Positions 16,577 through 20,853 of a stretch of 37,633 nt of DNA are shown in pieces. The translations under genes and the position numbers were made by a program. Each line of letters starts with the position of its first letter. Position 1 is the first letter of the stretch. The notes under the pieces were generated by a model. The model saw only the letters and a list, made by a program, of their open reading frames with translations. It was not told where the DNA came from and made no database searches. Source of the DNA: Actinomycetales bacterium (GTDB lineage: Bacteria > Actinomycetota > Actinomycetes > Actinomycetales > DASROP01); NCBI GenBank assembly GCA_038232615.1, contig JBBSNO010000001.1, forward strand, positions 1 to 37,633, written 5' to 3'.

Positions 16577-16735
16577 ATGACACCTGGCATGAGCAGTGTG
16601 AGCGCCGGGATGCACCGGGCGACGCCAGTGGTCGTCGGGGTGCTCCTGGCCGCCTACGGGCTGGCAGTGCTGCTGGGGACGCCGGGTGCTCCGGGGATCG
16701 TGCTCACCGAAAATGTGGCGCGCCACATTTTCCAC
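16577..16735 (+). pseudogene. 5' fragment of a membrane-sensor GGDEF-type gene interrupted by the RIT element
   Basis: Encodes a hydrophobic N-terminus (...VVVGVLLAAYGLAVLLG...IVLTENVARHIFH). The frame then runs into the element's terminal repeat at 16736. It continues in frame at 20206. Confidence 0.55.
16710..16731. repeat. Perfect 22-bp palindrome AAAATGTGGCGCGCCACATTTT abutting the RIT left end
   Basis: Read directly from the sequence. Each half carries ATGTGGC, the core of the element's CGTTATGTGGCCGGT motif. There is no counterpart outside the right end. Confidence 0.9.
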
Positions 16736-16764
16736 GTTCTGTGCCCGCCCGCGTTATGTGGCCG
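16736..16764 (+). repeat. RIT left terminal inverted repeat (contains motif copy L1, CGTTATGTGGCCG, 16752-16764)
   Basis: Perfect reverse complement of 20177-20205. Confidence 0.9.
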
Positions 16765-16815
16765 TGGGGGTCGACGTCCCTGGCGCGCAGCGATGAACGG
16801 CCAAGCGCGGCCGTT

Positions 16816-16830
16816 ACCGGCCACATAACG
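16816..16830 (-). repeat. RIT left subterminal motif copy L2 (CGTTATGTGGCCGGT in reverse orientation)
   Basis: ACCGGCCACATAACG on the plus strand. Forms an inverted pair with L1 across a 51-nt spacer. Lies 57 nt upstream of the ritA ATG. Confidence 0.85.
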
Positions 16831-16887
16831 TTCGCCGCTCGATGGATGGTGCTTCCTCCACCCCTCACGGAGAGAGGAAGTTGTCCC

Positions 16888-18150
16888 ATGTTGGAGGAGT
16901 ACTTCGTCAGGCCGGCGACGGTCGATCGGATCCGCGGGTCCTGGATCGCCGCAGAGATCGAGAACTACCTGGTGTGGATGGTCGAACGGGGTTACAGCCC
17001 CAAGAGCATCTGGCGTCGAGTCCCGATCGCCTTCGCGTTCGGCGAGTTCGCTGGTGCGCGAGGGGCGAGCGGGATCGGCGAGTTGCCAGCGCAAGTCGAG
17101 ATGTTCGTGGCCGATCGGGTGAGGCGCCACGGAGCCCGCACGGGGTCGACGCGGCCGATGTCGAAGGAGGTCCGGGGTCCTGTCGAGCAGATGCTCTCGG
17201 TTGTGCTCCCTGGCTTCGAGCCCAGCGGCCGGCCGCAGCACGCCCAGCCCTTCGTCGATGTCGTCCCTGGCTTCTTCGACTACCTGGTCGAGGAGCGTGG
17301 CCTTCGCCCGGCCTCGGTGCTTGGCTACCGCCATCATCTCGACCGGTTTGAGGCATACCTGCGAAGGATCGGTGTCGAGTCGATCCGGGAGCTCTCCCCG
17401 ACGATCCTGAGCGCCTTCGTTGTCGAGCGCGCCGCCGCGGGGCTGGCCAAGAGCACGGTGCGCGATGGTGCTGGTGTGCTGCGGGTGTTCCTGCGCTACG
17501 CCCACCGAGAAGGTGTCCTGGTCACCGACCTGAGCGCCGCCGTCGGGTGGCCGCAGGTCTACCGGCTCTCGACCATCCCCCGTTCCATCTCCTGGGACGA
17601 CGTCAACCGGGTCCTGGCCGGGGTCGACCGCAGGACCGCGGCGGGCAGGCGCGACTTCGCCATCTTGCTCCTGCTGGTCACCTACGGCCTGCGCGGCCGC
17701 GAGATCGCCGCGCTCACCCTGGACGACATCGACTGGAAGCGTGAGCGCCTGGCGATCCCCGAGCGCAAAGCCGGCCACTCCACGGCGTTTCCCCTCTCCG
17801 CCGTGGTCGGCGAGGCCATCCTGGACTATCTCCAACACGGACGTCCCGCGACGGCCGATCGCCACGTGTTCTTCCGGGCCACAGCTCCCCGCCAGCCGAT
17901 CGGCGCTGCCGGGGTGTCGTCGCGGGCCCGCCACTACCTGCTCAAGGCAGGTGTCGACGTCCCCCGGCCGGGCTCGCACACCTTGCGCCACTGCGCGGTG
18001 CAGCGTCTCGTCGATGCGCACTTCGACCTGAAGACGATCGGGGACTTCGTCGGGCACCGCTCGGCACGATCGACCGAGGTCTACGCCAAGGTCGCCGTCG
18101 AGGCGTTGCGCGAGGTCGCCCTGGGCGACGGTGAGGCGGTCCTGTCATGA
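16888..18150 (+). CDS. ritA: Tyrosine recombinase, RIT element first gene (RitA-like, long N-terminal domain)
   Basis: 420 aa. GGAGAGAGGAAG RBS 8 nt upstream of ATG 16888. Catalytic Arg in YGLRGREIAAL, HTLRHCAV (HxxR), FVGHRSARSTEVYAKV (His and Tyr). Confidence 0.88.
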   Translation: MLEEYFVRPATVDRIRGSWIAAEIENYLVWMVERGYSPKSIWRRVPIAFAFGEFAGARGASGIGELPAQVEMFVADRVRRHGARTGSTRPMSKEVRGPVEQMLSVVLPGFEPSGRPQHAQPFVDVVPGFFDYLVEERGLRPASVLGYRHHLDRFEAYLRRIGVESIRELSPTILSAFVVERAAAGLAKSTVRDGAGVLRVFLRYAHREGVLVTDLSAAVGWPQVYRLSTIPRSISWDDVNRVLAGVDRRTAAGRRDFAILLLLVTYGLRGREIAALTLDDIDWKRERLAIPERKAGHSTAFPLSAVVGEAILDYLQHGRPATADRHVFFRATAPRQPIGAAGVSSRARHYLLKAGVDVPRPGSHTLRHCAVQRLVDAHFDLKTIGDFVGHRSARSTEVYAKVAVEALREVALGDGEAVLS

Positions 18151-19112
18151 ACGACAGCCTCGTCACCGCCGTCGCCGACTTCTTGGCCCACAAGCGGGCC
18201 CTCGGCCGCAAGTATCTGACCGAGGAGGCGACGCTGCGTCTGCTCCTGGCCTTTACCAGCCAGCACGGGGTGCAGGACCTGGGTCAGCTCACACCCTGCC
18301 TGCTCGATGAGTTCGTCGCCTCCAGGCCCAGGGAGCGAGCCCGCAGCTTCAACCACCTCGTCGGGATCCTCGGCTGCTTCCTGGACTGGGCCGTGACCCA
18401 GCAGCGCCTGGATACGTCGCCGTTGCGCAGCACCCGGCGACGGGACACGGCCCGGCGCCTGCCGTTCCTCTTCGACGCCCCCCGCGCCCGCCAGGTACTC
18501 GAGGCGGCCGCGGCCCTTCCCGACAATGCCAGGGCCACCGATCGCGGGCCGACCTACCACGCCATCTTTGCCCTCTGCTACGGCCTCGGGCTCAGAGCCG
18601 GAGAGGCGTGCGGCCTGCGCGTGGGCGACGTCGACGTCGACCGGCAGCTCCTGGTCGTGCGCGGTGGCAAGTTCGGCAAGAGCCGCCTGGTCCCCCACGG
18701 GCCGCGCCTGGGCAACCTCCTGGCCCGCCAGCTCGACCGCCGAAGGAGCGACGGCACCCCAGAACCTGACGCGCCGCTGTTCAGCTTCGACGGTCGGCGC
18801 AGCGTCCACCCCGGTAGCGCGAGCCAGACCTTCCACCGGCTCGTCGTCGAGCTGGCCTTCCGGGCCCCGGACGGCGTCGAGCCGCCCCATCTTCACTGCC
18901 TGCGTCATTCTTTCGCCGTCGGGTGCCTGCTGCGGTGGTATCGGGACGGTCTCGACCCCTCGACGCGCCTCTACCAGCTCTCGACGTTCATGGGCCACGT
19001 CGACCCCACCTCCACCGCCATCTACCTGACCATCACCCCCGAACTGCTCGTCGAGGCCAACCGGCGATTCGAAGCCTTCGCCGAGCCGGCATGGTCGAAG
19101 GCCAAGCCGTGA
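18147..19112 (+). CDS. ritB: Tyrosine recombinase, RIT element second gene (RitB-like)
   Basis: 321 aa. ATGA overlap with the ritA stop. GLGLRAGEACGL, HCLRHSFAV, FMGHVDPTSTAIYLT. Confidence 0.88.
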   Translation: MNDSLVTAVADFLAHKRALGRKYLTEEATLRLLLAFTSQHGVQDLGQLTPCLLDEFVASRPRERARSFNHLVGILGCFLDWAVTQQRLDTSPLRSTRRRDTARRLPFLFDAPRARQVLEAAAALPDNARATDRGPTYHAIFALCYGLGLRAGEACGLRVGDVDVDRQLLVVRGGKFGKSRLVPHGPRLGNLLARQLDRRRSDGTPEPDAPLFSFDGRRSVHPGSASQTFHRLVVELAFRAPDGVEPPHLHCLRHSFAVGCLLRWYRDGLDPSTRLYQLSTFMGHVDPTSTAIYLTITPELLVEANRRFEAFAEPAWSKAKP

Positions 19113-20119
19113 CCGGCACGCGGCCGCTGGGGCCGCTGGTCCACTCCTTCTTCATCGACCACCTGGTCACCGTGAAGGGGCTGCGGCCCGCGTCGGTGCG
19201 CAGCTACCGCGACACCATCCGGCTCCTGCTGTGCTTCGTGGCCCAGGACAGGAGAACGAAGATCACCAAACTCACCGTCGAGGACCTGAGCTTCGAGCGG
19301 GTCCTGGGCTTCCTGCGCCACCTGGAGGACGACCGCCACAATCATGTCCGGACCCGCAACCAGCGACTGGCGGTGGTGCACACCCTGTTCGACTACATCG
19401 CCAGCCGAGACCCGCAGATGCTCGGCGTCTGCCAGCAGGTGACGGCCATCCCGATGAAGCGGGCAGCCCCCGCCCAGACGCACTTCCTCGAGCGCGACGA
19501 GGTGGAGGCGCTGCTGCGGCACCTGCCCCGCACGGGTCGCCTCGCACTGCGAGACCACGCCCTGCTCCTGTTCCTCTACAACACCGGAGCGCGGGCCCAG
19601 GAAGTGGCCGACCTGCGAGCCGGACACCTCGAGCTCGGAGAAGCCGGCGTAGTCCGCCTCCACGGCAAGGGCGACAAGTGGCGGACCTGCCCACTATGGG
19701 GCCAGACAACGGAACTGCTGGCCGAGCTGCTCGACGCGTCCAACAACCTCCCCCCGATGGACGCCCCCGTCTTCTGTTCGGCGACGGGCGAGGCCCTGAC
19801 GCGGTTCGGCATCTACAAGATCGTGCGGCGCCACGCCGGGCACCTTGACGACCCTCGCACCAACCGCCGGGTCAGTCCACACATCTTCCGCCACACCGCA
19901 GCAATGCACTTGCTCGAGGCCGGCGTCGAGGTGAACGTCATCCGTGGCTGGCTCGGGCACGCCGACCTCACCACGACGAACCGCTACGCCGAGATCAACA
20001 CCAGAGCAAAGATCGAGGCACTTCGAAACACCGAACCGCCCGGTGTTTCGGCGGGACCCCGCACTCGTCCCGTCTGGCGCTCCGACGAGTCGCTGCTCAA
20101 CTGGCTGTCCTCCCTCTGA
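19109..20119 (+). CDS. ritC: Tyrosine recombinase, RIT element third gene (RitC-like)
   Basis: 336 aa from GTG 19109 (GTGA overlap with the ritB stop, GAAGG 7 nt upstream). ATG 19091 is an alternative start. NTGARAQEVADL, HIFRHTAAMHLL, WLGHADLTTTNRYAEI. Confidence 0.86.
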   Translation: MTGTRPLGPLVHSFFIDHLVTVKGLRPASVRSYRDTIRLLLCFVAQDRRTKITKLTVEDLSFERVLGFLRHLEDDRHNHVRTRNQRLAVVHTLFDYIASRDPQMLGVCQQVTAIPMKRAAPAQTHFLERDEVEALLRHLPRTGRLALRDHALLLFLYNTGARAQEVADLRAGHLELGEAGVVRLHGKGDKWRTCPLWGQTTELLAELLDASNNLPPMDAPVFCSATGEALTRFGIYKIVRRHAGHLDDPRTNRRVSPHIFRHTAAMHLLEAGVEVNVIRGWLGHADLTTTNRYAEINTRAKIEALRNTEPPGVSAGPRTRPVWRSDESLLNWLSSL

Positions 20120-20120
20120 T

Positions 20121-20135
20121 CGTTATGTGGCCGGT
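20121..20135 (+). repeat. RIT right subterminal motif copy R1 (CGTTATGTGGCCGGT)
   Basis: Starts 2 nt after the ritC stop codon. Forms an inverted pair with R2 (20175-20189) across a 39-nt spacer that contains a small TGATC-CCAA-GATCA hairpin. Confidence 0.85.
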
Positions 20136-20176
20136 GGCGGAACGTTGATCCCAAGATCACTGGCATCGGCCGTCAC

Positions 20177-20205
20177 CGGCCACATAACGCGGGCGGGCAC
20201 AGAAC
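20177..20205 (-). repeat. RIT right terminal inverted repeat (contains motif copy R2, 20175-20189)
   Basis: Perfect reverse complement of 16736-16764. Confidence 0.9.
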
Positions 20206-20853
20206 CTGGACAACGTGGTCACGACGGTCGCGGCGTTCCTCGCCGCCGGGTGCTGCGTCGCCACGGGCCTGCGGGCCCGCACGCGTGCCCGCGCTGCCTG
20301 GTGGCTGCTGGGCTCGTCCGCCGGGTCGTGGGGGGCGGGTCAGGCGCACTGGTCGGTCAACGAGCTGCTCCTGCACAACCCCGTCCCCTTCCCGTCCCTG
20401 GCGGACGCCGGCTTCCTCGGGTTCCCCGTGCTCGCGGCGGCGGGCCTCTGGCTGACGGCCGGGCGCGCGATCACCTCCGCGTCGCGGCTGCGTGCCGGGA
20501 TGGACGGCGCCCTGGTCGCGGCCGGGGTCTTCACGGCGTCCTGGACGACGGTGCTCGGCCCGGTCTACCGCGGCGGCGCCGACACCCCGTTCGCAGTGGT
20601 CATCTCGGTCGCCTACCCCGTGGGTGACGTGCTCCTCGTCGCCCTCTCGCTCCTGCTGCTCTCCCGCGTCCGTGGCCGACGGCCTCTACGCCCTGGAGGG
20701 GGTGACGGAGTGGTCTCGGTGAGGGTCAGTGTCGGCATCGCCGGCATCGTCCCGGGCGCCGACCTCGACTCGGCAGCCGAGATGCTGATGCGGACGGCCG
20801 ACCACGCCATGTACGCCGACAAGACGGTCCAGAAGATCAGCGCCGACGTCTGA
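20206..20853 (+). pseudogene. 3' fragment of the interrupted membrane-sensor GGDEF gene, additionally carrying an internal deletion
   Basis: The membrane domain (AAWWLLGSSAGSWGAGQAHWSVNELLL..PFPSLADAGFLGFPVLAAAGL...) joins directly to the extreme C-terminus of a GGDEF domain (VSVGIAGIVPGADLDSAAEMLMRTADHAMYADK). The GGDEF motif and most of the domain are absent. Confidence 0.65.

Follow-up and report, generated by a model that had tools for sequence, protein, structure and literature searches.

How does a mobile element that encodes three different recombinases mark its own ends? The question is raised by a recombinase in trio (RIT) element in an Actinomycetales bacterium (GenBank assembly GCA_038232615.1, contig JBBSNO010000001.1), which we analysed within the first 37,633 nucleotides (nt) of the contig's forward strand, the whole of which is here called the window. 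The window contains a single RIT copy of 3,470 base pairs (bp; 16736-20205) with a perfect 29-bp terminal inverted repeat (TIR; 16736-16764 and 20177-20205). Judged from its sequence it is an intact RIT with three Xer-like tyrosine recombinase genes: ritA, ritB and ritC are adjacent on the same strand with short overlaps, all three products match Pfam Phage_integrase, and the element interrupts a target gene, which is evidence of its mobility. An initial annotation of this DNA had reported four copies of a 13-15-nt motif, forming one inverted pair at each end of the element. We propose that these are probably the outer and inner members of an array that defines the ends of RITs and consists of six Xer/dif-like half-sites of 11-12 bp for recombinase binding.

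The four annotated copies are real. The 15-mer CGTTATGTGGCCGGT is exact at 16816-16830 (-), 20121-20135 (+) and 20175-20189 (-), and the copy at 16752-16766 (+) is exact over its first 13 nt and then reads TG for GT (two mismatches to CGTTATGTGGCCGGT). The annotated spacers (51 nt on the left, 39 nt on the right) and distances also hold: the ritA ATG (16888) is separated by 57 nt from the left inner 15-mer, and the right inner 15-mer starts on the second base beyond the ritC stop (20117-20119). The list of copies was nevertheless incomplete. With up to two mismatches the 12-mer GTTATGTGGCCG has eight matches in the window, compared with 1.97 +/- 1.27 in shuffles, and none of 100 shuffles reaches eight; six of the eight lie at the element ends, the other two being scattered (33640 and 37152, two mismatches each). 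Besides the four GTTATGTGGCCG copies at the places described, the ends hold two omitted copies of the form GTTCTGTGCCCG, at 16736-16747 (+) and 20194-20205 (-), which are the tips of the TIR and lie 17 nt outside the outer copies. We call the sites T (terminal), O (outer) and I (inner), with L and R for the left and right ends (Table 1).

Table 1. Features of the RIT element, its half-sites and its junctions in the window.
Feature	Position	Strand	Remarks
J1, 6-nt junction unit CACCGA	16705..16710	+	between the host gene N-side and the palindrome
Palindrome core AAATGTGGCG/CGCCACATTT, two back-to-back half-sites	16711..16730		full 24-bp perfect palindrome 16709-16732
J2, inverted 6-nt junction unit TCCACG (reverse complement CGTGGA)	16731..16736	-	central region, dif-like 11-6-11
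T_L, terminal half-site TTCTGTGCCCG	16737..16747	+	putative crossover-proximal site; conserved as nTTcTGTgcCCg in 45 elements
O_L, outer half-site GTTATGTGGCCG	16753..16764	+	first annotated copy; begins 17 nt after T in all relatives
I_L, inner half-site	16818..16829	-	second annotated copy; starts 65 nt after O_L; ends 58 nt before the ritA ATG
ritA leader hairpin	16850..16881	+	anti-Shine-Dalgarno GCTTCCTC pairs with Shine-Dalgarno GAGGAAGT; per-sequence folding
ritA	16888..18150	+	tyrosine recombinase with extra N-terminal region of ~125 aa; Pfam Phage_integrase and Phage_int_SAM_1
ritB	18147..19112	+	tyrosine recombinase; 4-nt overlap with ritA; Pfam Phage_integrase
ritC	19091..20119	+	tyrosine recombinase; Pfam Phage_integrase; start codon assigned from homologues
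I_R, inner half-site	20122..20133	+	third annotated copy; starts 2 nt after the ritC stop
O_R, outer half-site	20177..20188	-	fourth annotated copy; starts 55 nt after I_R
T_R, terminal half-site	20194..20204	-	CGGGCACAGAA on the + strand; TIR tip
J3, 6-nt junction unit CCTGGA	20205..20210	+	right junction
Target-side arm CAACGTGGTCA	20211..20221	+	with the preceding GA gives the target word GACAAC

RITs are widespread, with more than 4,000 RitA relatives at E <= 1e-20, and a RitA scan restricted to one genome per species gave 80 loci (54-88% identity; numbered with an L) in Actinomycetota, Chloroflexota, Acidobacteriota, Nitrospinota, Gemmatimonadota and several classes of Pseudomonadota. ritB and then ritC follow ritA in the same order in most loci of sufficient length, and RitA, RitB and RitC each match their own counterpart, with the order kept, in 50+ loci (46-88% identity); nothing sets the window element apart from the rest of the family. 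All six sites could be read in 45 elements, from Actinomycetota, Chloroflexota, Acidobacteriota, Nitrospinota and Pseudomonadota (RitA identity 54-88%), on which the six-site analysis was performed.

The array is conserved across these elements. By exact matching, a word containing TTATGTG occurs in the annotated four-copy layout in ~30 of 56 loci, and approximate matching finds three copies per end in nearly all loci: T, O in the same orientation 17 nt inward, and I inverted. Present at both ends of the 45 elements, the sites have the consensus sequences nTTcTGTgcCCg (T), GTTATGTGgCcg (O) and GTTATGTGcCCg (I). In the first eight bases of the 12-mer each position carries ~1.6-2 bits of information, against 0-0.3 bit in the adjoining spacer of O and I. 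The classes can be told apart at position 4 (C in 29 of 45 T sites, A in 89 of 90 O sites) and at position 9 (C in 34 of 45 T sites, G in 34-35 of 45 O sites, mixed in I sites). Motif and orientation, whose conservation the initial annotation had posed as a check, are therefore kept across phyla while the spacer sequence drifts freely, a pattern that fits the predicted recombinase-binding sites. Nor is the motif a common genome-wide repeat, the circumstance that would have spoken against a link to the element: across 51 loci, matches with at most one mismatch number 181 in element zones (taken to extend 35 nt beyond either end of the element) and two in the 198 kb of flanking DNA.

The same plan is built from another word in a more distant RIT. 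Among plasmid RITs of Cupriavidus, Rhizobium and Sphingobium (RitA identity 33-39%), the Sphingobium yanoikuyae element (38%) carries the word ATAATGCGCAGG at all four O and I sites, with O at -114 and I at -57 from ritA, and I at +2 and O at +60 after ritC. It has a terminal CTTATCGCGAGG 17 nt outside O and a palindrome CTTATGCGCAG/CTGCGCATAAG beside the terminal site; its half-site TGCGCATAA is the XerC arm of Escherichia coli dif, and its excision in silico yields a frame of at least 1,261 aa that joins annotated strawberry-notch N- and C-terminal parts. The Cupriavidus and Rhizobium RITs have their own repeated words, rearranged. The plan thus goes with the element family and the word with the subfamily rather than with the host; on the sequences compared, a single motif spans phyla and tracks the element rather than its bearer.

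That the T sites are the element boundaries is marked independently by contigs of ~3.4-3.5 kb, some of high coverage, that consist of a RIT from tip to tip in isolate-genome assemblies (L043, L065, L070 and L025), the signature of a collapsed multi-copy repeat.

The inner sites stand at fixed distances from the genes, the end of I_L lying 54-59 nt from the ritA ATG and I_R at +2 from the ritC stop in nearly all relatives, as might be expected if the inner copies were mainly expression signals, with I_L an operator on the ritA promoter, through which the recombinases would autoregulate ritA as the initial annotation had suggested, and I_R/O_R a terminator or mRNA-stabilizing hairpin after ritC. 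The top strand of I_L, CACATAAC or CACATAAT, also loosely resembles a -10 hexamer. We consider this explanation quite improbable. Scans of both ends found neither a sigma-70-type promoter nor an intrinsic terminator consensus, although their reach does not extend to actinobacterial promoter types and in a high-G+C actinobacterium the result counts neither for nor against this reading. One word recurs in one geometry on either side of the operon, which is easier to reconcile with recognition of the ends than with a pair of unrelated expression signals, and the O/I arms are conserved in sequence and do not covary. The conserved regulatory feature of the ritA leader is instead an RNA hairpin over the ribosome-binding site. 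When each leader is folded separately, 48 of 51 distinct ritA leaders have a base-paired Shine-Dalgarno sequence and the stems covary, while RNAalifold on a MAFFT alignment of the leaders returns no structure, the 5' arm being out of register. This hairpin is likely to act in translational control and to be unrelated to the DNA motif.

Spacing between the sites argues for recognition on duplex DNA. Across 105 ends, the O-to-I start-to-start distance is 53-57 in 52, 64-68 in 50 and 75-76 in 3, with none of the 105 between these classes, and periodicity is best at 10.5-10.7 bp (R = 0.91). The unequal left and right spacers seen in the window are not themselves conserved, the left/right combination 65/55 occurring in only 9 of 52 elements, whereas 65/65 and 55/55 occur in 20 each and others are rare; what is kept is helical phase. 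Even close relatives fall into different classes (65/55 in the window, 65/65 in L003, 56/65 in L013 and 76/55 in L011), indicating that one-turn steps arose repeatedly. Spacing in steps of one helical turn points to duplex DNA.

The initial annotation had also suggested a hairpin or cruciform at each pair, and a substrate of this kind, with each O/I pair folding as single-stranded DNA for recombination like integron attC or CTX attP(+), has some evidence behind it. Single-strand fold prediction is in line with it at the right end of the window (a 20-bp stem, z = -4.8 and -5.4), and Nielsen et al. 2017 found that exonuclease treatment enriched RIT DNA with no circular junction reads and proposed hairpin-structured intermediates from 47- and 51-bp palindromic repeats at RIT ends (PMC5737581). 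The left end, however, folds like shuffles (z = -1.2 and -1.5). In the 45 elements the same site at the opposite ends of one element is alike far beyond chance (z = 17 for T, 11 for O and 5 for I, with T identical at 11.6 of 12 positions on average), whereas O and I within one end show no excess covariation (z = 1.8 for O_L-I_L and 2.4 for I_R-O_R, against 1.3 and 2.2 in cross-end controls). O/I complementarity is confined to the 12-mer in the family, the eight bases inside O and I not being complementary above background; steps of 10.5 nt have no rationale in a hairpin loop; and an O/I stem would present a single half-site rather than a complete core. The lack of O/I covariation and the phasing, alongside a fold that stands out at one end only, favour protein-bound duplex over an O/I hairpin, which we judge unlikely.

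Where, then, could strands be exchanged? T has what the other sites lack, an inverted partner at 6 bp, as in an Xer/dif core: the window reads GCGCCACATTT-TCCACG-TTCTGTGCCCG, and L059 has the 11-6-11 site GCGCCACATAA-TCGTAT-TTATGTGCCCC, compared with GGTGCGCATAA-TGTATA-TTATGTTAAAT for dif of E. coli and CACGCCGATAA-TGCACA-TTATGTCAAGT for that of Frankia (both quoted in PMC3025954). O and I are separated from their partners by 43-64 nt and have no half-site at 6-8 bp on the TTATG side, so that they cannot be crossover sites in duplex DNA. The proposal that each end pairs core with accessory sites is therefore retained in an altered form: the four annotated copies look accessory, and the likely crossover sites are the two terminal copies that had gone unlisted.

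The likeness to dif might mean that host XerC and XerD bind the sites and that the element exploits Xer as IMEX elements do, since the six inner bases TTATGT of the half-site TTATGTGGCCG are common to the XerD arm of dif in E. coli, Bacillus subtilis and Frankia (dif sequences from PMC3025954). We give this very little credence. The element brings three Xer-like recombinases of its own, all apparently intact; GGCCG, which makes up the outer half of the site, does not resemble dif; the motif is constant across host phyla but differs between RIT subfamilies within Proteobacteria; and insertions lie at GACAAC words, not at dif. NCBIfam XerC/XerD models are the best or near-best matches for RitA, RitB and RitC, with scores far below the cut-offs, and the best solved relative of RitC is XerD (1a0p). 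In RitA these models match only residues 126-410, and the ~125 extra residues before this Xer-like part agree with the published description of RitA as having 'two sequential CB domains' or an added N-terminal domain (PMC8138268). A domain search of the Rit proteins found no arm-binding domain family; RitA does have the extra N-terminal region.

The partner of T is supplied by a palindrome. In the window the full palindrome GAAAATGTGGCGCGCCACATTTTC (16709-16732), with an ATGTGGC core like the motif, lies just outside the left tip, and most related RITs have a palindrome beside one tip; wherever one is present, its centre is exactly 15 nt from T. Its symmetry is kept while its sequence shifts between clades together with T, the core being AAATGTTCCG/CGGAACATTT in most actinobacterial elements, AAATGTGGCG/CGCCACATTT in the window and TTATGTGCCC/GGGCACATAA in proteobacterial ones. 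Read outward from T in the relatives, both tips are followed by the same few bases, which lead on one side to the target GACAAC and on the other to the 20-nt palindrome core; beyond the palindrome come an inverted copy of the junction bases and then the other side of the target. An integrated copy thus consists of target N-side, 6-mer, palindrome, inverted 6-mer, RIT in either orientation, 6-mer and target C-side.

Each insertion has the 6-mer at three junctions, twice in direct and once in inverted orientation; loci with a triplicated unit include L004, L007, L020, L042 and L061. Of 46 complete elements, 18 carry three identical 6-mers, among them rare words such as GACCGA, GTCGGA, TTCCGA and CAACGG. 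The first base of the T 12-mer belongs to this unit, and this base matches between J1 and J3 in 32 of 46 elements against a permutation mean of 15. No strict rule for which 6-mer differs could be found, all patterns being seen. Because the 6-mers are often unlike, either there is no strict need for homology in the central region or flanks are frequently exchanged at a later point.

Palindrome and element belong together. The exact actinobacterial palindrome has 112 copies on 110 metagenome contigs, and in 101 of the 112 a RIT tip lies at a distance of 3 nt, on just one side. Among the nine copies for which no tip was called, five form a head-to-head junction between two transposase N-sides, one lies beside a RIT tip but at an offset of 2 nt, and three are bordered on one side by sequence that could not be identified (solo palindromes joining two transposase N-sides are also seen at L091, L114 and L119). 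Two simpler origins were considered and rejected. Solo palindromes are not simple excision footprints, as no copy stands alone between a target N-side and C-side; nor was the palindrome a pre-existing target, being absent from intact IS21 transposase sequence and from host-gene homologues and abutting a RIT tip in 101 of 112 copies. It was also absent from viral contigs.

The RIT body occurs in both orientations relative to palindrome and target, and flanks are frequently exchanged. In 62 element occurrences with both ends on one contig, the target C-side lies on both flanks in 11 and the palindrome on both flanks in 3, which indicates exchange between RIT copies, as expected if copies or palindromes recombine and invert the DNA between them. 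The loci concerned include L018, L083 and L085 (palindrome on both sides) and L008, L013, L027, L034 and L071 (target C-side on both sides). Separately, on short metagenome contigs (L003, L066 and also L035), identical inverted sequence of 30-40 nt or more flanks the RIT on both sides, representing either two copies of one insertion sequence or an assembly artefact at long inverted repeats.

The consensus of 79 distinct target flanks is CCS-GACAAC-CTSAAG. Among 77 translatable flanks 67 encode xDN, and an IstA-like signature such as PDNLKTGV..DLYDP.IN is present in 62. The word GACAAC is split in most insertions, and it usually represents the Asp-Asn (DN) codons of an IS21-family transposase gene. 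We take the Asp of this motif to be the second residue of the DDE catalytic triad. As the DN motif accounts for ~80% of distinct flanks, RITs of this family mostly sit in, and disrupt, another mobile element. Excision in silico, in which the palindrome core, inverted 6-mer, RIT and one of the other 6-mers are taken out, gives back an IS21-family transposase frame in L004 (one continuous match to NF033546, 214 bits against a cut-off of 160) and in others likewise.

The window is an exception, its GACAAC word lying in a membrane-protein gene. Here excision of 16711-20210 restores one open reading frame (...GIVLTDNVVTTVAAF...) that aligns gap-free to uninterrupted membrane-protein homologues (...WLDDVGEFVVAF...), and these uninterrupted homologues lack the palindrome; on excision the restored target would read ...CTCACCGACAAC... 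or ...CTCCTGGACAAC.... In P0121, the host gene's nearest homologue (90% identity), the sequence already diverges before the junction is reached, and the comparison is uninformative. The interrupted gene (16577-16710 plus 20211-20853) encodes a multi-pass membrane protein whose reconstructed product ends like a GGDEF-domain tail (...ADHAMYADK...) and matches no NCBIfam model; it may already have decayed apart from the RIT insertion.

Combining these features, the six-site reading would work as follows. Rit recombinases bound at O and I, the accessory sites, would bend or loop the ~55-76 bp of duplex DNA between them and assemble both ends into a synaptic complex, the extra N-terminal domain of RitA being one candidate for O/I binding. 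Strand exchange would take place at T, in the 6-bp unit beside it, where T, the 6-bp central region and an inverted palindrome half-site (or a degenerate target half-site) would form an 11-6-11 core like dif. The mobile form would carry the junction T'-6-palindrome-6'-T, and one of its two dif-like cores would recombine with a target sharing the 6-mer; recombination of either symmetric core with a target a-6-b would reproduce the integrated structure, in either orientation. Binding by the Rit proteins, the assignment of protein to site and the cleavage positions are what we infer in this scheme. The three site classes, together with the extra domain of RitA, offer leads, and only leads, on why there are three recombinases.

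Several points weigh against this six-site reading. The three 6-mers of the window differ (CACCGA, CGTGGA and CCTGGA), as they do to some extent in every element outside the 18 of 46 with identical trios. A circular or hairpin junction, with T on both sides of the palindrome, was found in 0 of the 112 metagenome palindrome copies. In those elements whose entire ends are inverted copies, a long duplex stem arising from TIR pairing in single-stranded DNA would agree with the helical phasing as well. Many of the loci come from metagenome-assembled genomes or short contigs, are not phylogenetically independent and may in some cases be mis-assembled. RIT transposition, moreover, has never been reproduced in the laboratory (PMC10214605).

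The form of the intermediate could be a double-stranded circle, a TIR-folded single-stranded circle (CTX-like, with one strand exchange followed by replication) or a hairpin-capped linear molecule, all of which fit the scar, and exonuclease-resistant RIT DNA without circular junction reads (PMC5737581) is compatible with all three. A more specific proposal, possible but advanced only tentatively, is that RITs move via a folded single-stranded or hairpin-capped intermediate and that the family is a specialized hyperparasite of IS21-family insertion sequences. Pairing of the two TIRs and half of the palindrome would then recreate a dif-like core, T'-6-h. One strand exchange with a target that has the 6-mer in common, and replication after it, would produce the very scar observed, namely 6-mer, palindrome, inverted 6-mer, RIT and 6-mer, and an intact spare core site would be left beside the element, where it could invert it. 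The hyperparasitism would consist in integration into the GACAAC that encodes the conserved DN motif of IS21-family transposases.

The six-site reading amounts to a falsifiable model, with six half-sites in three classes, a crossover beside T with a 6-bp central region, and a defined target word, and it predicts which oligonucleotides bind, where nicks fall and what form excision products take. Beyond the mechanism, the preference for IS21-family DN codons suggests that one mobile element systematically disables another, and the frequent swapped flanks suggest that RIT copies drive genome inversions.

The window element and its family share with described RITs (Van Houdt et al. 2009, 2012; Ricker et al. 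2013) overlapping ritA, ritB and ritC, a length of ~3.5 kb, TIRs and insertion in genes of other mobile elements, such as a Tn6049-like transposase gene (PMC3414803). For RIT ends, one description gives only a 28-29-bp inverted repeat with an overlapping palindrome, judged to fall outside known site schemes (PMC3414803), and another lists 34-bp TIRs and calls target specificity and movement untested (PMC10214605). As far as we checked, the site architecture, junction structure and target rule go beyond the accessible RIT descriptions; Ricker et al. 2013 may describe more.

Tn554, strand-biased circularizing integrative elements (SE) and GInt likewise use several tyrosine recombinases and carry or copy a 6-bp unit beside the element between sites (PMC10214605). 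These systems, however, have asymmetric ends, no long TIR and a specific att site, and require a non-recombinase fourth or third protein (TnpC, Srap or GinD), whereas RITs have symmetric TIRs, six repeated half-sites and a flanking palindrome. The L1-L3 and R1-R3 sites of Mu, the TnsB sites of Tn7 and the arm-type sites of lambda Int comprise several phased copies per end, direct and inverted, of which only the terminal copy adjoins the cleavage point. Mu and Tn7 use DDE transposases, and lambda Int has a separate arm-binding domain that recognizes a different sequence. In RITs, by contrast, T, O and I all share one Xer-like word, so that the ends do not form a lambda-type core-plus-arm arrangement. 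Integron attC sites also engage a tyrosine recombinase on foldable inverted repeats, but attC conserves structure, whereas RIT sites conserve sequence without hairpin covariation. The role proposed for O and I is comparable to that of the several subterminal sites of Mu or Tn7 ends or of the accessory sequences of plasmid Xer sites, and XerCD/dif together with IMEX elements such as CTX phage shares the 11-bp arms, the inner TTATG/CATAA and the 6-bp centre found at the T/palindrome junction; in CTX phage, two inverted dif-like sites fold in single-stranded DNA. RITs depart from this system in their unpartnered O and I, their GACAAC target and their unlike outer arm halves, and in having recombinases that match XerC/XerD profiles but are element-encoded and three in number.

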